From the NCBI RefSeq assembly GCF_003334305.1, contig NZ_QOWS01000008.1: a DNA stretch of 64,000 nt; one strand, given 5' to 3'. This DNA is from Escherichia coli. GTDB taxonomy: Bacteria; Pseudomonadota; Gammaproteobacteria; Enterobacterales; Enterobacteriaceae. Positions 15,855-60,410 of the stretch are shown piece after piece (position 1 is the stretch's first letter; each line of letters begins with the position of its first letter). The notes under the pieces are model-generated. The model had not been told where the DNA came from. It searched no databases and worked only from the letters and a program-made list of their open reading frames with translations. The position numbers and the translations under genes are program-made.

Positions 15855-16892
15855 TTACTTAGCGAGAGTTACTGTGGAGGGAGAGGCTTGCTCAAATCCG
15901 CGTTCAAGGATTTCCAGATTGGTAAGAACTTCAGATTCCTTGACGTAATTTGGCGCACCGTGGGTGATGGTTTGATACAACGCATCATAAACGCGCCCGT
16001 AATCGCCCATCTCCGGCTTCATCTCTTCTCTGACCGTCACGCCCTCGTCATTGACATACTCCAGCACACCGACCGAATCATCCGCTGCGAATCCCGGTTC
16101 GCCCGGCATAATATTAGCCTTCAGGCTGGTTTCCTGCTGGTCGATACCGTATTTAATAAACGAACCTTTCTTACCGTGAACGATAAATTTCGGATAATCG
16201 ATTTTCACCAGATGGCTGGTTTTGACGATGGCTTTCAGGTCGCCATAAAACAGTTGCGCTTCAAAGGTGTCGTCAGGATTGGCTTTATTACGCAGGCTGC
16301 GGATGTCATAAGCGACGTGATCCGGGCGACCGAACAGAGAAATAATCTGGTCCATCGTATGCACACCAAGGCCATAAAACGCGCCATCCTGCGGCAGCCC
16401 AGGTTTGGTTTCTGCCACCGGGCGGTAATAGTCAAAATGGCTTTCCACTTCAACAATCTCTCCCAACTTGCCACTTTCAATCGCTTTTTTCGCTGTCAGG
16501 AAGCAGGAGTCAAAGCGACGATTCTGATACGGCGTGACGGTCAGCCCTTTGCTTTTCGCCAACGCAAACAGCTCCTTCGCCTGGGCAAGCGTCGGGGTGA
16601 ACGGTTTTTCGACCAGCACATTTTTCCCGGCTTCCAGCGCGCGTTTCGCGTACTCGAAATGGCTGTCCGCGTGGGTGCAGACAACAACCAGCTTAACATC
16701 GGGATCGTTTAGTACTTCGTCGAGATCGCTGGTGAAATGGATATGGGAATAAATGGGAGCCTGTTCTTCCGGCTTCGCATGGCGACGAAAAATATGCGCG
16801 ACATGCCAGCTATCCTTGCGGTTAAGTACATACGGCAGATGGTAACGGGTGGTGCTTTTGCCGAAGCCAATAAAGGCGCAGTTGATGACCAT
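15855..16892 (-). CDS. yhhX: Gfo/Idh/MocA-family NAD(P)-dependent oxidoreductase
   Basis: 345-aa ORF MVINCAFIGFGKSTTRYHLPYV with N-terminal Rossmann motif; matches E. coli YhhX. Confidence 0.92.
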   Translation of the reverse strand: MVINCAFIGFGKSTTRYHLPYVLNRKDSWHVAHIFRRHAKPEEQAPIYSHIHFTSDLDEVLNDPDVKLVVVCTHADSHFEYAKRALEAGKNVLVEKPFTPTLAQAKELFALAKSKGLTVTPYQNRRFDSCFLTAKKAIESGKLGEIVEVESHFDYYRPVAETKPGLPQDGAFYGLGVHTMDQIISLFGRPDHVAYDIRSLRNKANPDDTFEAQLFYGDLKAIVKTSHLVKIDYPKFIVHGKKGSFIKYGIDQQETSLKANIMPGEPGFAADDSVGVLEYVNDEGVTVREEMKPEMGDYGRVYDALYQTITHGAPNYVKESEVLTNLEILERGFEQASPSTVTLAK

Positions 16893-17010
16893 GATTTCGT
16901 CCTTTTTAAGGTGGTTATTTACACCTTAGCGCAAAGCGGACGTGGTTCCTACTGGAGTGCGCATAACGAACACAAGCACTCCCGTGGATAAATTGAGAAC
17001 GAAAGATCAA

Positions 17011-17103
17011 AAAAAAAGCCAGCACCCGGCTGGCTAAGTAATACTGGAAGCAATGTGAGCAATGTCGTGCTTTCAGGTTCTCCGCGAGGGTCTTCCTGAT
17101 CGC
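17011..17103 (-). ncRNA. ryhB: RyhB iron-starvation small RNA
   Basis: Reverse complement of 17103..17011 reads GCGATCAGGAAGACCCTCGCGGAGAACCTGAAAGCACGACATTGCTCACATTGCTTCCAGTATTACTTAGCCAGCCGGGTGCTGGCTTTTTTTT, the RyhB sequence with its terminator hairpin and U-tract; located between yhhX and yhhY as in K-12. Confidence 0.93.
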
Positions 17104-17105
17104 GA

Positions 17106-17132
17106 GACAATAATAATCATTCTCATTCGCAC
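17106..17132 (-). promoter_or_regulatory. Fur box overlapping the ryhB promoter
   Basis: Minus strand reads GAATGAGAATGATTATTATTGTCTC immediately upstream of the RyhB 5' end; resembles the GATAATGATAATCATTATC Fur consensus. Confidence 0.7.
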
Positions 17133-17224
17133 TTGTCCAACACTTTTTGCAAAAAAATGCATTTGACTCGCATTTGAAAGTCAATGATGTTGAAAGGGAC
17201 ATTTACCCCAAAGAGGACAAAGGA

Positions 17225-17713
17225 ATGAGTGAGATAGTAATACGCCACGCAGAAACACGGGATTACGAGGCCATCAGGCAGATTCACGCCCAGCCGGAGG
17301 TGTATTGCAACACACTACAGGTGCCTCATCCTTCCGATCATATGTGGCAGGAGCGACTCGCCGATCGTCCCGGCATCAAGCAACTCGTCGCCTGTATTGA
17401 TGGAGACGTCGTGGGCCATCTCACCATTGACGTGCAACAGCGCCCACGCCGCAGTCATGTTGCCGATTTTGGTATCTGTGTCGACTCTCGTTGGAAGAAC
17501 CGCGGCGTCGCCAGCGCCCTGATGCGAGAGATGATTGAAATGTGCGACAACTGGTTGCGGGTAGATCGCATTGAACTAACCGTGTTTGTCGATAACGCCC
17601 CGGCAATTAAGGTCTATAAAAAATACGGCTTTGAAATTGAAGGGACTGGTAAGAAGTACGCATTGCGTAATGGTGAATATGTCGATGCATATTATATGGC
17701 GCGGGTGAAGTAA
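17225..17713 (+). CDS. yhhY: GNAT-family N-acetyltransferase
   Basis: Recognised protein begins MSEIVIRHAETRDYEAIRQIHAQPEV at internal ATG 17225 (162 aa) preceded by AAGAGGACAAAGGA; ORF track start 17147 lies inside the ryhB promoter region. Confidence 0.9.
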   Translation: MSEIVIRHAETRDYEAIRQIHAQPEVYCNTLQVPHPSDHMWQERLADRPGIKQLVACIDGDVVGHLTIDVQQRPRRSHVADFGICVDSRWKNRGVASALMREMIEMCDNWLRVDRIELTVFVDNAPAIKVYKKYGFEIEGTGKKYALRNGEYVDAYYMARVK

Positions 17714-17949: not shown

Positions 17950-19128
17950 ATGAGTAATATTGTTTACCTGACAGTAACGGGAGAACAACAAGGAAGCATC
18001 TCCGCAGGTTGTGGGACTTCTGAGTCTACAGGTAATCGTTGGCAGAGCGGGCATGAGGATGAAATATTTACATTCTCACTCTTAAATAATATTAATAATA
18101 CGGGGCTTGGTTCACAGTTCCATGGTATAACATTTTGTAAATTAATTGATAAAAGCACTCCATTATTTATTAATTCCATTAACAATAATGAACAATTATT
18201 TATGGGATTTGACTTCTATCGAATAAATAGATTTGGTAGATGGGAAAAGTATTATTATATACAACTAAAAGGCGCTTTTTTATCGGCTATTCATCATCAG
18301 ATCATTCAAAATCAACTGGATACAGAAACAATAACTGTTAGTTATGAATTTATCCTCTGTCAACATCTTATCGCAAATACCGAGTTCAGCTATTTGGCAC
18401 TCCCTGAAAATTATAACCGTTTGTTTTTACCAAATTCAAAAAACCAAACAAATAATCGTTTCAAAACGTTAAACAGCAAAGCTATTGGCAGGCTACTTGC
18501 TGCTGGTGGCGTATACAATGGGAACATTGAAGGATTCAGAGATACTGCGGAAAAACTGGGTGGAGATGCAATAAAAGGCTATGATCAAATACTAAATGAA
18601 AAAACAGCGGGCATAGCGATAGCAACAGCATCTATTCTTTTAACAAAGCGTTCTAATGTTGATACATATACAGAAATAAATAGTTACTTAGGCAAACTTA
18701 GAGGTCAACAAAAACTTCTTGATGGTATAGACATAATAGAAATAATATACATTAAGAGACCTTCAAAAGACTTAGCTAACTTACGAAAGGAGTTTAATAA
18801 AACTGTAAGAAAAAATTTTCTTATCAAACTTGCAAAAACCTCCGAAGCATCTGGAAGATTCAACGCCGAAGACCTTTTAAGAATGAGAAAGGGCAATGTT
18901 CCTCTAAATTATAATGTTCACCATAAACTATCTCTAGATGATGGTGGTACTAATGATTTCGAAAATTTAGTATTAATCGAAAACGAACCATATCATAAAG
19001 TTTTTACTAACATGCAATCACGAATAGCTAAGGGAATATTAGTAGGTGAAAGCAAAATCACTCCCTGGGCCATTCCATCTGGCTCAATTTATCCTCCCAT
19101 GAAAAATATTATGGACCACACAAAATGA
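17950..19128 (+). CDS. yhhZ: Hcp-family protein fused to C-terminal HNH (colicin-DNase-like) nuclease domain; orphan polymorphic toxin
   Basis: 392-aa ORF in AT-rich DNA; N-terminal approx 150 aa Hcp-like; C-terminus NYNVHHKLSLDDGGTNDFENLVLIENEPYHK fits the HH..N..H HNH signature. Confidence 0.85.
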   Translation: MSNIVYLTVTGEQQGSISAGCGTSESTGNRWQSGHEDEIFTFSLLNNINNTGLGSQFHGITFCKLIDKSTPLFINSINNNEQLFMGFDFYRINRFGRWEKYYYIQLKGAFLSAIHHQIIQNQLDTETITVSYEFILCQHLIANTEFSYLALPENYNRLFLPNSKNQTNNRFKTLNSKAIGRLLAAGGVYNGNIEGFRDTAEKLGGDAIKGYDQILNEKTAGIAIATASILLTKRSNVDTYTEINSYLGKLRGQQKLLDGIDIIEIIYIKRPSKDLANLRKEFNKTVRKNFLIKLAKTSEASGRFNAEDLLRMRKGNVPLNYNVHHKLSLDDGGTNDFENLVLIENEPYHKVFTNMQSRIAKGILVGESKITPWAIPSGSIYPPMKNIMDHTK

Positions 19129-19619
19129 TGACTAAAACCCAAATAAATAAATTAATAAAAATGATGAATGATTTAGACTATCCATTTGAAGCACCGCTCA
19201 AGGAATCATTTATTGAAAGTATAATCCAAATAGAATTTAATTCTAATTCAACTAATTGCCTGGAGAAGTTATGTAATGAAGTTAGTATTCTTTTTAAGAA
19301 TCAACCTGATTATCTTACTTTTTTAAGAGCAATGGATGGATTCGAAGTTAATGGATTACGATTATTTAGCCTCTCGATTCCAGAACCTTCAGTTAAAAAC
19401 CTTTTTGCCGTAAATGAATTTTATAGAAATAATGATGATTTCATAAACCCTGATCTACAAGAACGGTTAGTGATCGGGGATGATAGCATTTCAATATTTA
19501 CTTATGACATTAAAAGTAACTTTTTTGAAATTAGAGATAATATTGGCACAGAAAATATATTCAGTTCGTTTAGTGATTTCTCTTCATTCTTAAACGAAAT
19601 CATGGACAGTTGTTCATAA
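19125..19619 (+). CDS. yrhA: putative cognate immunity protein of the Hcp-HNH toxin
   Basis: 164-aa acidic ORF whose ATG overlaps the yhhZ stop (ATGA); same AT-rich composition; position corresponds to yrhA, which in K-12 is disrupted by IS1 (no IS1 here). Confidence 0.6.
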   Translation: MMTKTQINKLIKMMNDLDYPFEAPLKESFIESIIQIEFNSNSTNCLEKLCNEVSILFKNQPDYLTFLRAMDGFEVNGLRLFSLSIPEPSVKNLFAVNEFYRNNDDFINPDLQERLVIGDDSISIFTYDIKSNFFEIRDNIGTENIFSSFSDFSSFLNEIMDSCS

Positions 19620-19713
19620 TAATCAAAAGGAAACAAAAATCATTGTAAACCATGCCATCTTTTTAGAGATTACCAGCAGAAAATTCCTTGTTCGAAATTT
19701 AGCAGTGCAAGCT

Positions 19714-28021: not shown

Positions 28022-28735
28022 TTACCCGCCTAAATACGCACTTCTCACCGCTTCATTCGCCAGTAGTGCATCACCAGTATCGGAGAGCACCACATGGCCG
28101 TTTTCCAGCACGTAGCCGCGATCCGCCAGCTTTAGCGCCTGGTTGGCGTTCTGCTCGACGAGGAAGATAGTCATCCCCTGCTCGCGCAGCTGCTCGATGG
28201 TGTCGAAAATTTGCTGGATGATAATCGGCGCAAGACCGAGCGATGGCTCATCAAGTAGCAGCAAACGCGGGTTGCTCATCAGCGCGCGACCAATCGCCAG
28301 CATCTGCTGTTCACCGCCGGACATGGTGCCCGCCCGTTGAACACGGCGCTCATGGAGACGTGGAAACAGCTCATACACCCACTTTATGCGCTCCTGAAAC
28401 TGATCACGTTCGGCAAAAAAGCCGCCCATCGCCAGGTTCTCTTCCACCGTCATCCGCGAGAAGACGCGACGCCCTTCCGGGACAATCGCTACCGCTTCGC
28501 GCATGATTTTCGCCGTTTGCCAGTCGGTAATGTCTTTATCATCAAACACAATTCGCCCGCTGGTGGCACGCGGATCGCCGCATAACGTGCCGAGCAAGGT
28601 GGTTTTCCCCGCCCCGTTCGCGCCAATGAGGGTGACAATCTCGCCCTGATTGATATGCAGGCTCACCTCATGCAGCGCCTGGATTTTGCCGTAGTGGGCG
28701 CTGACTTTGTCAAAGGACAACATGACTTTTTCCAT
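28022..28735 (-). CDS. livF: branched-chain amino acid ABC transporter ATP-binding protein
   Basis: Recognised protein starts MEKVMLSFDKVSAHYGKIQALHEVSL at ATG 28735 (237 aa); Walker A GANGAGKTT. Confidence 0.93.
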   Translation of the reverse strand: MEKVMLSFDKVSAHYGKIQALHEVSLHINQGEIVTLIGANGAGKTTLLGTLCGDPRATSGRIVFDDKDITDWQTAKIMREAVAIVPEGRRVFSRMTVEENLAMGGFFAERDQFQERIKWVYELFPRLHERRVQRAGTMSGGEQQMLAIGRALMSNPRLLLLDEPSLGLAPIIIQQIFDTIEQLREQGMTIFLVEQNANQALKLADRGYVLENGHVVLSDTGDALLANEAVRSAYLGG

Positions 28736-28736
28736 C

Positions 28737-29504
28737 TTATGCCTCACCTAAATAGGCACGGATCACGTCCGGGTTATTACGGATTTGCTCCGGCGTACCG
28801 TTTGCCAGTGGCGTCCCCTGATTGACCACGTAAATTCGGTCCGAAATTCCCATCACCAGCTTCATATCGTGTTCAATCAACAAGATAGTGGTGTTGTGAT
28901 GATTGCGCAGTTCGGCAATCAGCTCATCCAGCTCTTTCGTCTCTTTCGGGTTAAGACCTGCCGCCGGTTCGTCGAGCATTAAAATCTCCGGCTGCGTCAC
29001 CATGCAGCGGGCAATCTCCAGACGGCGTTGGTCACCATAGGCCAGGTTACTCGCCTGACGGTTGGCGTGTTCCAGCAAACCAATGCGCTCAAGCCAGGTG
29101 GCGGCGCGGTCGAGCGCTTCGCTCTGGGCGCGACGGAAAGATGGCGTTTTCAACAGGCCAGAGAACAGCCCGGTTTTCAGTTGCTGATGCTGCGCCACCA
29201 GCAGGTTTTCAATTACCGTCATTTCACGGAACAGACGCACATGCTGGAAGGTACGCACCACGCCCATGCGGGCAATTTGCTGCCCCGGTAAACCTTCCAG
29301 ATGCTGATCACGCAGTAAAATAGTGCCGCCGGTGGGTTTGTAGAATCCGGTCAGGCAGTTAAAAACCGTGGTTTTTCCGGCACCGTTAGGGCCGATTAAC
29401 GAGACGATCTCCTGCGGGTACAGTTCAAGATTGACGTTGTTCACCGCCAGCAAGCCGCCGAAGCGCATCATCAGACCGTTAACAGATAATAATGGCTGAC
29501 TCAT
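28737..29504 (-). CDS. livG: branched-chain amino acid ABC transporter ATP-binding protein
   Basis: 255-aa [33 protein letters not shown]; Walker [10 protein letters not shown]. Confidence 0.95.
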
Positions 29505-48975: not shown

Positions 48976-50550
48976 ATGCTCTCCACACTCCGCCGCACTC
49001 TATTTGCGCTGCTGGCTTGTGCGTCTTTTATCGTCCATGCCGCTGCACCAGATGAAATCACCACCGCCTGGCCGGTGAATGTCGGGCCACTAAACCCGCA
49101 CCTTTACACGCCTAACCAGATGTTCGCCCAGAGCATGGTTTATGAACCATTGGTGAAATATCAGGCAGACGGTTCGGTGATCCCGTGGCTGGCAAAAAGC
49201 TGGACTCATTCAGAAGATGGTAAAACCTGGACCTTCACCCTGCGTGATGACGTGAAATTCTCCAACGGTGAACCGTTCGATGCCGAGGCGGCGGCAGAAA
49301 ACTTCCGCGCAGTGCTCGATAACCGTCAACGTCACGCCTGGCTGGAGCTGGCAAACCAGATTGTTGATGTTAAAGCACTCAGTAAAACAGAGCTGCAAAT
49401 TACCCTGAAAAGCGCCTACTATCCTTTCCTGCAAGAACTGGCCCTGCCCCGTCCTTTCCGTTTTATCGCTCCCTCGCAGTTTAAAAACCATGAAACCATG
49501 AACGGAATTAAAGCGCCGATTGGCACCGGACCGTGGATTTTGCAGGAATCGAAACTGAATCAGTACGATGTCTTCGTCCGTAACGAAAACTACTGGGGCG
49601 AAAAGCCGGCGATTAAGAAGATCACTTTTAACGTCATCCCGGACCCGACTACCCGCGCGGTGGCGTTTGAAACTGGCGATATCGACCTGCTGTACGGAAA
49701 CGAAGGGTTATTACCGCTCGATACCTTCGCCCGCTTTAGCCAGAACCCGGCTTACCACACCCAACTGTCACAGCCGATCGAAACCGTGATGCTGGCACTC
49801 AATACCGCCAAAGCCCCCACCAACGAGCTGGCAGTACGGGAAGCTCTTAATTACGCGGTGAACAAAAAATCGCTGATTGATAACGCGTTGTATGGCACCC
49901 AGCAGGTCGCCGACACCCTGTTTGCCCCTTCTGTGCCCTACGCCAACCTCGGCCTGAAACCGCGCCAGTACGATCCGCAGAAAGCGAAAGCGTTGCTGGA
50001 AAAAGCCGGTTGGACGCTGCCTGCGGGCAAAGACATCCGCGAGAAAAATGGTCAGCCGCTGCGCATTGAACTGTCGTTCATCGGCACCGATGCGTTAAGC
50101 AAATCGATGGCGGAAATCATTCAGGCTGATATGCGCCAGATTGGCGCAGATGTCTCGCTGATTGGCGAAGAAGAGAGCAGTATCTATGCTCGTCAGCGCG
50201 ACGGTCGTTTTGGCATGATTTTCCACCGCACCTGGGGCGCGCCATACGATCCACACGCCTTCCTCAGTTCAATGCGCGTACCGTCACACGCTGACTTCCA
50301 GGCACAGCAAGGATTAGCCGACAAACCGCTGATTGATAAAGAGATCGGCGAAGTGCTGGCGACCCATGACGAAACGCAACGTCAGGCGCTGTATCGCGAC
50401 ATTCTGACCCGTCTGCATGACGAGGCGGTTTATCTGCCTATCAGCTACATCTCGATGATGGTGGTATCAAAACCGGAGCTGGGTAATATCCCCTACGCGC
50501 CGATCGCCACCGAAATTCCGTTCGAACAGATTAAACCGGTGAAACCTTAA
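48976..50550 (+). CDS. nikA: nickel ABC transporter periplasmic binding protein
   Basis: 524-aa ORF with signal peptide [27 protein letters not shown]. Confidence 0.96.
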
Positions 50551-51490
50551 TGTTGCGTTACGTATTACGCCGCTTTCTGCTGCTGATCCCGATGGTGCTC
50601 GCCGCCTCGGTGATCATTTTTCTGATGCTGCGCCTCGGTACCGGCGACCCGGCGCTCGATTATTTGCGTCTGTCTAACCTGCCGCCGACGCCGGAGATGC
50701 TGGCCTCTACCCGCACCATGCTGGGACTGGATCAGCCGCTGTACGTCCAGTACGGCACCTGGTTGTGGAAGGCGCTGCATCTTGACTTTGGTATCTCATT
50801 CGCCAGCCAACGCCCGGTACTGGACGATATGCTGAACTTCCTGCCCGCCACGCTGGAACTTGCAGGTGCGGCGCTGGTATTAATTCTGCTCACTTCCGTA
50901 CCGCTCGGTATCTGGGCGGCGCGCCACCGCGACCGTCTGCCGGATTTCGCCGTGCGCTTTATCGCGTTTCTTGGCGTGTCGATGCCTAACTTCTGGCTGG
51001 CGTTTTTACTGGTGATGGCGTTTTCGGTGTATCTGCAATGGCTACCCGCGATGGGTTACGGCGGCTGGCAGCACATCATTTTGCCTGCGGTTTCCATTGC
51101 CTTTATGTCGCTGGCGATTAACGCGCGTTTACTGCGCGCCAGTATGCTGGACGTCGCCGGTCAGCGTCACGTCACCTGGGCGCGTCTGCGCGGCCTGAAC
51201 GACAAACAGACCGAACGTCGCCACATCCTGCGCAATGCCTCGCTGCCGATGATCACCGCCGTGGGGATGCACATCGGCGAACTGATCGGCGGGACGATGA
51301 TTATCGAAAACATCTTTGCCTGGCCGGGCGTCGGGCGCTATGCGGTGTCGGCGATTTTTAACCGTGACTATCCGGTGATCCAGTGCTTTACGCTGATGAT
51401 GGTGGTGGTTTTTGTGGTCTGTAATTTGATTGTCGATTTGCTCAACGCCGCGCTGGACCCGCGCATTCGTCGTCATGAAGGAGCGCACGC

Positions 51491-51494
<4 letters not shown>
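50550..51494 (+). CDS. nikB: nickel ABC transporter permease
   Basis: 314-aa membrane [32 protein letters not shown]. Confidence 0.96.
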
Positions 51495-54298
<2,804 letters not shown>

Positions 54299-54329
54299 GT
54301 TATTTCTGAAACGAGGAAAGAAAAGATAT

Positions 54330-54362
54330 TAACTGAACTTAATTTATAAAATTAAGTTCAGT
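54330..54362. terminator. perfect 33-bp palindrome (15-bp stem, 3-nt loop), bidirectional terminator candidate between nikR and the hicB-like gene
   Basis: AACTGAACTTAATTT-ATA-AAATTAAGTTCAGTT read directly from sequence. Confidence 0.55.
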
Positions 54363-54417
54363 TGCATAGATAGATCCTGTAAAGGCAGATATTCTGCGTA
54401 ATGTACGCCGCTAAAAT

Positions 54418-54777
54418 TTATAAATGATTCAAACGCTCATTCAGTGTTTCAATAATATAGGTATTAACAGAGACTTGTTGCTGCGCAGCCGCATTATTAA
54501 GGCGTTCACTCAGCGATTCTGGATAGCGTAACGTAAAGGTCTTAATCTTTTCTGTACGCGCATACGGCTCAATACCCGCAGCTTTACAATCCTCAAGATA
54601 CTCTCGCAGGGAAAGTTCCCCTTCTTTTTGCAGCCCCTGAATGCTGTCAGAGACAAAATCACAATAACCTGACAAGCCCAGGAATTTGCCACGAAATGCA
54701 TTCAGTTCTGGCACGTAAGTGATAACTGCAGGTTGCCCGGCAATCTCCATAGAGTTTGGCGTCTTCAGTTTGATCAT
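54418..54777 (-). CDS. HicB-family antitoxin candidate with C-terminal ribbon-helix-helix DNA-binding tail
   Basis: 119-aa ORF; RHH-like C-terminus TFTLRYPESLSERLNNAAAQQQVSVNTYIIETLNERL; 4-nt ATGA overlap with upstream HicA-like ORF. Confidence 0.6.
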   Translation of the reverse strand: MIKLKTPNSMEIAGQPAVITYVPELNAFRGKFLGLSGYCDFVSDSIQGLQKEGELSLREYLEDCKAAGIEPYARTEKIKTFTLRYPESLSERLNNAAAQQQVSVNTYIIETLNERLNHL

Positions 54778-55049
54778 GGTTTTACCCCTATACTTAGTAA
54801 CCAGTCACGCACGCTTTCTACAGCGCCTTTATCGGTATCTGGCGACGGATGAGGCCGATGGAAACACGCAACGCTCATATTTAGTATGAACTTACAACGC
54901 GAACCTCTTCCTTCCTTAATTTCTCCGCCTAATGCTTTAACCAGTGACTCTATATCAGACCACTTGATCCCTTGAGGAACAGGAGTTTTAAATATTTGAT
55001 CCAATGTATTTTTTTGTTTCTTCCGTAAAGCCTGTACCTTGGTTCTCAT
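54774..55049 (-). CDS. HicA-family (YcfA-like) mRNA-interferase toxin candidate
   Basis: 91-aa basic ORF MRTKVQALRKKQKNTLDQIFKTPVPQGIKWSDIESLVKALGGEIKEGRGSRCKFILNMSVACFHRPHPSPDTDKGAVESVRDWLLSIGVKP with the conserved His-Pro core; toxin-first order typical of hicAB. Confidence 0.6.
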   Translation of the reverse strand: MRTKVQALRKKQKNTLDQIFKTPVPQGIKWSDIESLVKALGGEIKEGRGSRCKFILNMSVACFHRPHPSPDTDKGAVESVRDWLLSIGVKP

Positions 55050-55050
55050 G

Positions 55051-55102
55051 GCATGTCCTTATGACTTCACTTTATGACATCAATAGTATGACATCACAGT
55101 AT
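55051..55102 (-). promoter_or_regulatory. operator-like repeat cluster upstream of the hicA-like gene
   Basis: Direct repeats TATGACATCA (55062..55072 and 55077..55086) nested within inverted repeat ATGACTTCA ... TGAAGTCAA, directly 5' of the toxin start. Confidence 0.45.
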
Positions 55103-55121
55103 GAAGTCAAGTTTCCCTTCC

Positions 55122-56249
55122 TTACGCCATTGTCCCAATCGTCTTCCTGAATCGCAGCAGCGCGATGGTGAAAAACGCGCCGCCAATTGCCATCAGCGTC
55201 AGGAACTGCGGCCAGACGATTTCGAATCCGGCACCCCGGTAGAGAATGGCCTGCGCGAGGCTAACAAAGTGTGTCGTCGGCATGGTCAGCATAATGTCCT
55301 GCACCATCTGCGGCATACTTTCGCGCGGCGTGGATCCACCGGAAAGCATTTGCAGCGGCAGCAGCACCAGAATCACCAGCAGCCCCAGTTGCGGCATTGA
55401 ACGCGCTATCGTCCCCATAAAAATGCCGATTGACGTGGTGGCAAACAGACTGAGCGCCACGCCCAGCATAAACAGCGGGATCGAGCCTTCAATCGGTACA
55501 CCCAGCACGCCTTTCACCATCAGCACCAGTGATAATCCCGACACCACCAGCACCACCAGCCCCATCGACCAGACCTTTGCCATCATGATCTCAAACGGCG
55601 TTATCGGCATCACCAACAAGTGTTCCACCGTGCCGTGTTCACGCTCGCGGATCAGCGCCGATCCGGTCAATACAATCGCCAGCATGGTAATGTTGTTGAT
55701 GATTGCCATCACCCCGCCAAACCACGCGGGATCAAGGTTCGGGTTAAAGCGCATCCGGGTTTCCAGCGATACCAACGGTTCGCTGTTATCACGGTAGCGC
55801 GCGACAAAGCTGTTCACTTCACCGTTGATAATATTCTGGATATACCCATTGCCGGTAAATGCCTGGCTCATGCGCGTGGCATCGACGTTCACCTGAATAT
55901 CCGGCTGGCGTCCGGCGAGGACATCACGCTGAAAATTAGGCGGAATATTTATCGCAAAGGTATAACGCCCGGCGTCCAGTCCGGCATCCATCTCATCGGC
56001 GGTGATCATCTCCGGTGGCAAAAACCACGGGCGATAGAAGCTGTTAACGATCCGGTTCGATAACTGCGATTGATCCATATCGGCAATGGCGATCGGCGCG
56101 AGGTTCAACGATCCTGGCGTAACGGTCGCTGACGAATACACCGACACCGTAAACGAGAAGACAATCAGCGTCAGCATCGCTTTATCACCGAGCAGACTGC
56201 GCAACTCTTTGATACCCAGATTAAAAATATTGCGTAAATGGCGCATCAT
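55122..56249 (-). CDS. yhhJ: ABC-2 family transporter permease
   Basis: Membrane [34 protein letters not shown]; start taken at ATG 56249 overlapping rbbA stop (ATGA); the adjacent ATG 56246 is an alternative; ORF track extends to 56330. Confidence 0.9.
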
Positions 56250-58981
56250 CCCTCCTGTTTTTTCAGCAGCAGGATACTTAAGCCCATCACCAGCGGGATG
56301 GCTATCAGCAACGGGATAAAAAGTTGCCACAAATCAGTCAGATCCAGCGCCTTCGAGAACGTCCCGCGGGCGATAGTCAGAAAATGACTGGTCGGGTAAA
56401 CCTCGCCGATCCAACGTCCAGGCCCTTCCAGCGAAGCTACCGGATCGATCATCCCGGAAAACTGTGTCGCCGGGATCAACGTGATAATCGCCGTTCCGAA
56501 AATGGCGGCAATCTGGCTTTTCATAAAGGTGGAGATCAGCAGCCCCATTCCGGTGGCAATGATGATATACAGCAGCGCCGCCAGGGTGAGCGTCAGGAAA
56601 CTGCCTTTATGCGGTACGCCAAACACAAACACCGACAGGCCGCAGAGCAGGAAAAAGTTCAGCATCCCCAGCGCGATGTATGGCAACTGTTTACCAAGCA
56701 AAAATTCACTACGCGTGGTGGGGGTCACGTAAAGGTTGATAATCGACCCAAGCTCTTTTTCCCGCACCACGCTAAGGGCGCTTAGCATTGACGGGATCAT
56801 CATCAGCAGAAGCGGGATCACCGCCGGAACAATCGCTGGCAGGCTTTTTACGTCCGGGTTATAGCGATAGCGCGTCTCAATATTCATCAGCCCGCTTTGG
56901 CTGGCGGGTGTGGATTGTCGGCTCGCCACATCCTGTAGCCAGCTCTGGTGCATGGCCTGCACGTAACCTTTTACCGTTTCGGCACGGCTCGGCATCGCTC
57001 CGTCGATCCAGACGCCGAGTTCCACAGGCGTACCACGCGCGATATCGCGCCCGAAATTGGGAGGGATCTCAATTGCCACCGTTATATCGCCCGCACGCAT
57101 CCGACGATCAAGCTCGTCATAACTGGTGAGCGGCGGCTGTTCGATAAAGTAACGGGAACCGGAGAGATTGAGCGTCCACGCCTGGCTACTGACGGTCTGG
57201 TCGCGGTCGAGCACCGCAAAGCGCAGGTTTTCCACATCCATACTGATGCCGTAACCCATTATCAGCATCAGGATCACTGTTCCCATCAGCGCCAGCGTCG
57301 AACGTACCGGATCGCGTCGCAGTTCCAGTGCTTCGCGGCGGCTGTAGCTAAACAGACGGCGCAGGCTAAATCCCTGACGCGGCGCGTGGGTGGTGTCGTG
57401 TATCACGGGCGGCGCTTCGGCTTCGTTGCTCTGTCCTGCCGCTTCCTGCAAATAGGCGATAAATGCCTCTTCCAGACTGGCGGCTCCGCGTTTCTCAACC
57501 AGTTCCTGCGGTGTACCGCTGGCGAGCACTTTTCCGGCGTGCATCAGTGAGATGCGGTCGCAACGTTCCGCTTCGTTCATAAAGTGGGTGGAGATAAAAA
57601 TGGTTACTTTGTCCTGGCGCGAGAGATCGACCATCAACTGCCAGAACATATCCCTCGCCACCGGATCGACGCCAGAAGTAGGTTCATCGAGGATTAACAT
57701 CTCCGGGCGATGAATCACCGCCACCGCCAGCGAAAGCCGCTGGCGAATGCCGAGCGGCAATGACTCCGGCAGAACATCTTCAACGTCGTTGAGCTTAAAA
57801 CGCTCGCTCATTTCAGCCACTCGCGCGGGAATTTCCGCTTCCGGGATGTGAAACAAACGGGCATGTAACTCAAGGTTTTGCCGCACGGTGAGTTCGTTAT
57901 AGAGCGAAAACGCCTGCGACATATAGCCCACCCGACGGCGGGTATCGATATCTTTTGGATCAACCGGTTGCCCAAACAGCCACGCCTCACCTTCGCTGGC
58001 GGGCAGCAGTCCGGTGAGCATTTTCATGGTGGTGGATTTACCGCAGCCGTTCGATCCAAGAAAACCAAAAATCTCCCCGCGTGGAATGCGGAAATTGACG
58101 TGATCAACGGCAACGAAGGAACCAAAACGCATGGTCAGATCGCGCGCTTCGATGGCAATCTCTGCATTTTCAGGTTGATACGGTGGGATCACTACCGCCT
58201 GATGCGCCTGGCGTTGCGCTTGCGGTAACAGATTTATAAACGCCTCTTCCAGCGTGGCGCTTTGCGTTTGCTGCCGCAGCTCTTCGGCGCTGCCAGTTGC
58301 CAGCACTTCTCCGGCATTCATCGCTACCAGCCAGTCGAAGCGTTCGGCCTCTTCCATATAGGCGGTGGCGACCAGCACGCTCATATTGCTCTGCCGCTGG
58401 CGAATACTGTCGATCAGATCCCAGAACTGGGCGCGGGAGAGCGGGTCAACCCCCGTTGTTGGCTCATCAAGGATCAACAGTTCCGGGTCGTGGATTAACG
58501 CGCAGCACAGCCCCAGTTTTTGCTTCATCCCGCCGGAGAGTTTACCTGCCGGACGATCGCGAAACGGTGCTAACCCGGTGCTGGTCAGCAGCTCATTAAT
58601 TCGGACTTCCCGCTCCGCTTTATCGTGACCGAACAAGCGAGCGAAAAAATCGACATTTTCATACACCGATAAGGTGTGGTAGAGATTTTTGCCCAGCCCC
58701 TGCGGCATCCAGGCGATGCGCGGGCAGACGTCGCGGCGATGCTTCGGGTCGCGCATATCGCCGCCCAGCACCATCACATTGCCCTGTTCAATGACGCGGG
58801 CACCGGAAATCAACGACAACAAGCTCGACTTCCCGACGCCGTCCGGGCCAATCAGCCCGACCATGCAACGGGCCGGAATATCGAGTGTGATATTGTTCAG
58901 CGCAACGGTTTTTCCATAATGCTGGCTCACGCCCGCCAGTTGCGCGACAGGCGGGACGGGAACCAGTTCCAGATGCGTCAT
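56246..58981 (-). CDS. rbbA: ribosome-associated ATPase; fused tandem ABC ATPase plus ABC-2 permease
   Basis: 911-aa ORF with two Walker A motifs ([18 protein letters not shown]) and a C-terminal multi-TM domain. Confidence 0.94.
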
Positions 58982-60045
58982 TGCGGCAACCTCACCACGA
59001 GGTCGTCAGGCCACGGAAGTTCTTCATTCACCCGCACCCACGCTACGCCCGGTAAACCGGTTTTGACATATTCCAGATGCTGCTGGAGTAATTCCGGTGG
59101 GATACGCGCTTTGACGCGGAACATCAGTTTCAGCCGTTCATCGCTGGTTTCGACGGTTTTTGGCGTGAACTGGGCGACACTGGCGACAAAACTGATGGTT
59201 GCAGGAATACGCAGATCTGGCGCGGCATCGAGGATCAGCCGGGCTTCACCGCCCAGTTTCAGCGTGCCCGCCTGTTCGGTTGGCAGGAAGAAAGTCATAT
59301 AGACGTCGCTGAGATCGACCATATTCAGCACCCGACCGCCTGCCGCCAGCACTTCGCCTGGCTCGGCAACCCGATACTGCACGCGTCCGTCACGCGGGGC
59401 TTTCAGTTCGCTGTCATCGATATCTGCGGCAATGCGCCGTTCAGTGGCTTGTGCGGCTTCGACGCGAGTTTGCGCCTGAATGATATTGGTGCGTGCCGCT
59501 TCTATAGCGGCTTTAGAAGCCGAAACCTGAGCTTTTGCCGATTCCAGCGCAGCTCGGGCGCTCTCAGCGGCGGCGCGGTCGTCATCCAACTGTTGCGCAG
59601 AAATAGCCCCACGATGGGCGAGCGAGCGGGAACGGGTATGACGTTTGGCTACGGAGTCCAGTTCAGCTTGCCGTTGATTAACCAGCGACTGAGCGGCGCG
59701 AGTTTCACTTTGGCGTTGCTCCAGCAAAGCCTGCGCGGCAGCAACGGCGCTTTGTGCTTCTTTGATTTGCGCGATGGCTTCCAGTCGCTGTTCCTGCAAC
59801 ACGCGAGTATCCATCTTCGCCAGCACTTCACCTTCTCGAACAAACTGGCCTTCTTTCACCAGAATGGTGTCAATACGCCCGGCAATTTTGCTGGCGATAT
59901 CCACTTCCGTCGCTTCAATGCGCCCATTGCTGACAGCAAAGCCTTCCGGCACACCTGCCGGGCGCAACAGCCACCACGCCACGATAGCCGCCACCGCCAG
60001 TAACCCGACAACCCACCACGCCAGATGGCGCTTACTCTTATCCAT
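58978..60045 (-). CDS. yhiI: HlyD-family membrane fusion protein
   Basis: 355-aa ORF with N-terminal TM anchor and long Ala/Gln-rich coiled-coil segments; 4-nt overlap with rbbA. Confidence 0.92.
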
Positions 60046-60410
60046 AATCGACCCGCCATAATCCCTGTAAGCAAACGACGCGTGTTACAACTGCCGCCGA
60101 ACGACGTTCAGCGGATTCTTCCATCCGGGATAAGAAGGAAACGGCAAATACGACCAGCGCGCAGAGCATTGAGCGCCAACGGGGAAGGCTTAGTGAAAAC
60201 GGGTAGTAATGTTGTCATCATCAGCATTCCTGGCCGTAAATGAAACACGCATACTCATAAGTGTGATCTATAAAACTGGCTGACAAAACGGTATCCATCC
60301 TGTTGGATAGCGTTTCACGCCTGTTCAGTTGCAGGAACAGAGCATTCCTTTTTACGTTTTATCAACAGTCTCAACCAGATAGTAACATTAATATTCATGT
60401 TGTCTATGGT

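Follow-up and report, generated by a model that had tools for sequence, protein, structure and literature searches.

The ryhB locus

The DNA analysed here is a 64 kb segment of an Escherichia coli chromosome (this whole stretch is called the window), and the gene for the small regulatory RNA RyhB lies on its minus strand, between yhhX and yhhY. RyhB is among the best-characterised bacterial sRNAs. The RefSeq record of K-12 MG1655 (NC_000913.3) annotates the ncRNA gene ryhB (b4451) at 3580922..3581016 on the complement strand, between the same two genes, and transfer of this annotation places ryhB at 17009..17103 (-) in the window, with a length of 95 nt. The gene has two neighbours: (i) yhhX, encoding an oxidoreductase, which is co-directional with ryhB and lies downstream of it at 15855..16892 (-) according to the open reading frame list and the K-12 annotation, and (ii) yhhY, encoding a GNAT N-acetyltransferase, which is the divergent neighbour at 17225..17713 (+). 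The yhhY assignment follows the K-12 annotation and the NCBIfam equivalog NF007527, which the 162-aa YhhY product matches end to end with 373 bits. A preliminary description of this DNA had called ryhB 'antisense-adjacent' to yhhY: the two genes are indeed adjacent, but ryhB is not antisense to yhhY, because they diverge without overlapping.

The covariance models of Rfam 15 were run over the whole 64 kb window at gathering thresholds, and the interval 16700..17500 was read on both strands. RF00057 (RyhB) matches at 17010..17074 (-), inside the transferred gene, with 83.1 bits against a gathering score of 55 (E-value 3.6e-14); the alignment spans model positions 1-67 of 67 and its posterior probabilities are near-perfect. 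It is the sole hit at gathering threshold in the 64 kb, with no other RNA and no second RyhB called. The Rfam scan had been set beforehand as the refuting test for a complete RyhB on the minus strand, and it calls RyhB well above threshold.

The window is about 99% identical to K-12 MG1655 and is not K-12 itself. Relative to K-12 its register is offset by one base and interrupted by indels, which makes an ungapped same-register comparison unusable; BLAST was used instead, and it resolves two collinear blocks of about 99.3% and 98.3% identity. Alignment to a known RyhB, the other check proposed at the outset, shows 100% identity to the annotated K-12 locus across the whole yhhX-yhhY intergenic region (16890..17230), with zero mismatches in the shared columns. 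From one intergenic flank to the other, the window copy is thus identical to K-12 RyhB (b4451, also SraI, family RF00057) in RNA, promoter, Fur box and terminator; it has the same neighbours, yhhX and yhhY, and the locus itself is without any difference. It is the strain background that differs, being ∼99% identical, with yrhA free of IS1E and rhsB not seen after nikR. Across the species the locus is close to universal: megablast of 16700..17500 gives hits in 5,425 of 5,426 complete E. coli genomes, many at 100%, and the 151-nt interval 16990-17140 is likewise found in 5,425 of the 5,426, being at least 99% identical in 4,947. The median copy number of RyhB in E. coli genomes is one.

Many Enterobacterales have two RyhB-core loci per genome, and Klebsiella has ryhB-2, so the locus might be imagined to be not the functional canonical gene but a paralogue, or a relic, of RyhB-2/IsrE type. 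The RyhB-2/IsrE paralogues of Salmonella, Klebsiella and other Enterobacterales do share the conserved core and the Fur-box promoter with the window RyhB, but they occupy other genomic positions, have other 5' domains and terminators (e.g. GCCCGC-type stems) and, unlike the window RyhB, are not flanked by yhhX and yhhY; E. coli is without this second copy. Rfam calls RyhB once in the window, the median for the species is a single copy, the position between yhhX and yhhY is the orthologous one, and identity to b4451 is complete, promoter and terminator included; a paralogue or relic is extremely improbable here. The locus is almost certainly the canonical E. coli ryhB with its Fur-repressed promoter: every defining feature of RyhB that can be checked at sequence level is present, and the gene, at its orthologous site, represents the type member of RF00057 and is already known and ordinary.

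Promoter, Fur operator and terminator

A sigma-70 scan of 16850..17300 finds a single site, on the minus strand, with 10 of 12 positions matched. This promoter (17110..17139) consists of a -35 hexamer TGGACA (17139..17134), an 18-nt spacer and a -10 hexamer TATTAT (17115..17110); it puts the predicted +1 at 17103, with the -10 hexamer at -12..-7 of the annotated +1, and it is conserved in orthologues (18-sequence alignment).

The Fur box (17106..17124) covers positions -3 to -21 of ryhB and lies over the -10 hexamer. Its sequence, GACAATAATAATCATTCTC, agrees with the 19-bp consensus GATAATGATAATCATTATC at 16 of 19 positions, and a second, overlapping match of 14/19, shifted by 6 bp, lies at 17112..17130. 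The two overlapping sites fit the Fur-site 'cluster' of Chen et al. 2007 (PMC2189734), who placed ryhB between yhhX and yhhY, reported a Fur site of 25.2 bits at -15 of ryhB and noted that the Fur site once attributed to yhhX is 'right in front of' ryhB. The Fur-box-like dyad which the preliminary description had seen overlapping the promoter is this 19-mer across the -10 hexamer, and the separation of less than 125 nt that it gave between promoter or Fur box and the yhhY start is also accurate: the yhhY ATG at 17225 is separated from the ryhB +1 (17103) by 122 nt and from the 19-mer of the Fur box by 101-119 nt.

A 19-mer that overlaps an AT-rich -10 hexamer and has three mismatches to the consensus could resemble a Fur box by chance, in which case ryhB would not be controlled through 17106..17124. 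However, this is the only match with three or fewer mismatches in the 64 kb, no such match occurs in 100 dinucleotide-preserving shuffles of the window, and gel shifts with purified Fur were reported for 13 of 13 predicted sites tested, the ryhB site included (Chen et al. 2007, PMC2189734). Chance resemblance is accordingly given next to no weight, and comparison with other species, described below, argues against it as well.

The ryhB transcript ends in a Rho-independent terminator at 17009..17035 (-), as had been proposed from the first reading of the sequence, with the stem AGCCAGC/GCUGGCU, the loop CGGGU and a U-run of nine; hairpin and poly-U tail make up the 3' Hfq-binding module of RyhB. 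In the terminator scan the stem (17035..17017) has 7 bp, five of them G-C, with perfect pairing around the 5-nt loop, and the nine-T run occupies 17017..17009, its first T doubling as the last base of the stem. A weak terminator-like hairpin (CACGGGAGTGCTTGTG then TTCGTTATGC) lies at 16971..16986 (-), between the ryhB terminator and the yhhX start. It is probably there by chance, because its 6 pairs include just 3 G-C and its T-run is poor; the region diverges quickly in other species.

Open reading frames across the locus

Two open reading frames drawn across ryhB exist mechanically: a 95-aa frame at 16915..17202 (-), with a 53-aa frame nested within it at 16949..17110 (-), and a 188-aa frame at 17147..17713 (+) that begins with TTG. 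The plus-strand frame is yhhY with 26 additional codons at its 5' end; in the annotation yhhY begins at the ATG at 17225. Both had been called artefacts in the preliminary description, and artefacts they are.

The existence of the minus-strand frames is what would recommend a locus that encodes a protein, of 95 aa or of 53 aa, with the RNA features incidental. Against this, the 95-aa frame runs across promoter, Fur operator and intrinsic terminator, an NCBIfam search of the 95-aa and 53-aa products returns no match, and neither frame is annotated in K-12 or in the PGAP records inspected. With the invariant RNA core used to set the frame, relatives have open stretches of anything from 1 to 79 codons upstream and from 8 to 449 downstream, and in E. 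albertii the upstream part is already down to 34 codons. The conservation pattern in the alignment of 18 orthologues is of the RNA/operator type and not of the codon type. The protein-coding reading was rejected for want of a family hit and of a conserved frame, and its probability is vanishingly small.

Among the records inspected, ryhB is annotated just in the curated K-12 record; the PGAP-annotated E. coli records (NZ_AP018808.1, here L001, and hits H11-H25) have no feature over ryhB. The omission is an effect of the pipeline and not an absence of the gene. Recognising ryhB matters here for annotation quality only, since it keeps a spurious protein from being called and yhhY from being started too far upstream, and the locus adds no new biology to a gene that is already known.

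The RNA: 5' domain, core and target pairing

The RNA upstream of its terminator has two parts, a variable 5' domain (17073..17103 (-), nt 1-31) and a conserved single-stranded core that is the target-pairing region (17043..17071 (-), RyhB nt 33-61, AGCACGACAUUGCUCACAUUGCUUCCAGU). The 5' domain contains a helix between UCAGG (nt 5-9) and CCUGA (nt 27-31). In the RNAalifold consensus of the RNA portion of the 18 orthologues this helix is kept by changes on both sides, e.g. A-U to C-G and G-C to C-G. The single-sequence minimum free energy (MFE) fold of the 95-nt RNA has a 5' helix that differs from the covariation-supported one, and its z-score of -0.67 makes it no more stable than shuffles; this value is uninformative because the sRNA core is unstructured. 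Weak MFE stability is usual for Hfq-dependent sRNAs with a single-stranded core.

The RyhB core GCACGACAUUGCUCACAUUGCUUCCAGU is present at 17043..17071 (-) and is nearly invariant across the 18 orthologues, the one exception being L093 with A to G at nt 36. Within it, RyhB nt 38-46 (GACAUUGCU) are exactly complementary to positions -4..+5 of sodB (AGCAAUGUC), so that the start codon is covered. An unrestricted RNAduplex calculation of RyhB against sodB -60..+30 was discarded: it yields an implausibly long interaction that is equalled by 7 of 500 shuffles. The sodB pairing was then assessed by the exact 9-nt complementarity and by a duplex restricted to the core.

One clinical isolate, E. coli 23AR0151 (NZ_CP195448.1, L125), carries a 9-nt duplication (ACATTGCTC) inside the target-pairing core, at a position equivalent to window ∼17058..17066. 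A natural imperfect tandem, ACATTGCTC-ACATTGCTT, is expanded there to three copies, and judging from the sequence the duplication looks like the product of slippage in the seed's own repeat.

Conservation in other species

When one-genome-per-species contigs are scanned for exact matches to the 24-nt core CGACATTGCTCACATTGCTTCCAG, at least 120 loci are found, in Enterobacterales, Vibrionales and Aeromonadales and often two per genome; Photorhabdus, Yersinia, Enterobacter and Phytobacter have two each among the matches listed. Within 110 nt upstream of the core, a Fur-box match of at least 14/19 occurs at 102 of the 120 loci among the matches listed, compared with 9 of 600 (1.5%) random 110-nt segments drawn from the same loci as a control. 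A perfect-stem hairpin with a T-run follows within 70 nt downstream of the core in 86 of the 120 among the matches listed. Many of the listed loci that have no strong Fur-box match or nearby terminator belong to Vibrio. Vibrio RyhB is much longer than E. coli RyhB, and Vibrio loci without a near Fur box or terminator would fit the expectation of a longer RNA. The 24-nt core is common to Vibrio and E. coli RyhB, and the same Fur-repressed, Hfq-dependent iron-sparing logic applies to both. That logic is also shared by PrrF1 and PrrF2 of Pseudomonas, functional analogues which are unrelated to RyhB in sequence.

Finer resolution comes from the alignment of 18 yhhY-linked orthologues. The block GAATGAnAATGATTATTATTG, comprising the Fur box and the -10 hexamer, is nearly invariant while its flanks diverge; this persistence across genera, like the excess of Fur-box matches at the listed RyhB loci over the controls, speaks against a chance resemblance of the operator. 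The terminator stem is invariant and its loop variable, and the sequence diverges right after the T-run. Searches by tblastn with the window's YhhX and YhhY show that the order yhhX-ryhB-yhhY is kept in E. albertii, Citrobacter, Enterobacter, Superficieibacter, Phytobacter and Pseudescherichia. The RyhB orthologue of Klebsiella is directly Fur-repressed and, by one account, also lies between yhhX and yhhY.

Predicted mode of action

The mechanism established for K-12 should apply here because the sequence is identical to that of K-12. With plentiful iron, Fe2+-Fur would occupy the operator (17106..17130), over the -10 hexamer and the transcription start, and would block RNA polymerase. When iron becomes scarce Fur would leave, allowing synthesis of a transcript of ∼90-95 nt from 17103 to the terminator (17035..17009). 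With Hfq, the core (nt 33-61) would then pair with the translation-initiation regions of mRNAs for non-essential iron proteins, the targets being expected to include sodB, sdhCDAB, acnB, ftnA and bfr; pairing would block translation and bring about decay by RNase E, so that iron is spared. For K-12, induction by iron limitation or by a fur mutation, repression by Fur in vivo, the requirement for Hfq and RNase E-mediated decay of targets are established, reportedly through the work of Masse & Gottesman 2002 (cited in PMC2189734), Masse et al. 2005 and Geissmann & Touati 2004; for the window locus we infer them from this literature on an identical sequence.

The divergent ryhB-yhhY pair

Upstream of the RyhB core, in divergent orientation, there is a yhhY homologue at a spacing of 146-216 nt, mostly 156-180 nt, in the window (spacer 17104..17224) and at loci L028, L032, L063, L079, L089, L093, L099, L101, L103, L104, L109, L117, L120 and L121. 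Yersinia, Hafnia and Pantoea have the divergent yhhY without yhhX beside the RyhB core, and the ryhB-yhhY pairing is more conserved than the ryhB-yhhX pairing, because it is kept in genera without yhhX. Conserved blocks also occur in the spacer; for example, GTCA and the palindrome TTTTTGCAAAAA stand just upstream of the ryhB -35 hexamer, and AACATCAnTGA stands nearer to yhhY. These could be the yhhY promoter or sites for a further regulator.

A tentative reading, which we hold with less than even confidence, is that the ryhB-yhhY pair is the conserved unit and that the Fur-box cluster might act as a shared bidirectional operator which makes expression of the YhhY acetyltransferase respond to iron starvation. 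Such an operator would fit the conserved distance between the two divergent genes. If true, it would be only a modest addition, because yhhY already appears under Fur in a gene set derived from RegulonDB (PMC2710865). When the literature was searched for a connection of YhhY to microcin C or albomycin detoxification, no paper mentioning YhhY was found.

Strain background

Three further regions of the window bear on the strain or on its repeated sequences. The yrhA region (19125..19620) contains no IS1E, and from 19506 on it runs straight into the sequence that follows IS1E in K-12; yrhA is intact in the window strain because the IS1E that splits K-12 yrhA is absent, and an intact yrhA is also seen among the PGAP annotations inspected. 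Downstream of the nik operon, at ∼49000..64000, genomes that are 100% identical annotate yhhJ, rbbA, yhiI and two DUF4049 (yhiJ-like) genes, and rhsB is absent from the feature names shown, with nine further names not listed. In K-12, rhsB is presumably located between nikR and yhhJ, and the window strain may be without it. This stretch is a variable region, because it is covered to at least 80% in just 3,870 of the 5,426 genomes. Finally, the segment 33702..33810 has an inverted 109-nt match of ∼84% identity to the region equivalent to 28646..28754 of the K-12 locus L123. The match joins the intergenic regions upstream of livK and between livF and ugpB, and it is probably a repeated extragenic element of the REP/BIME type.
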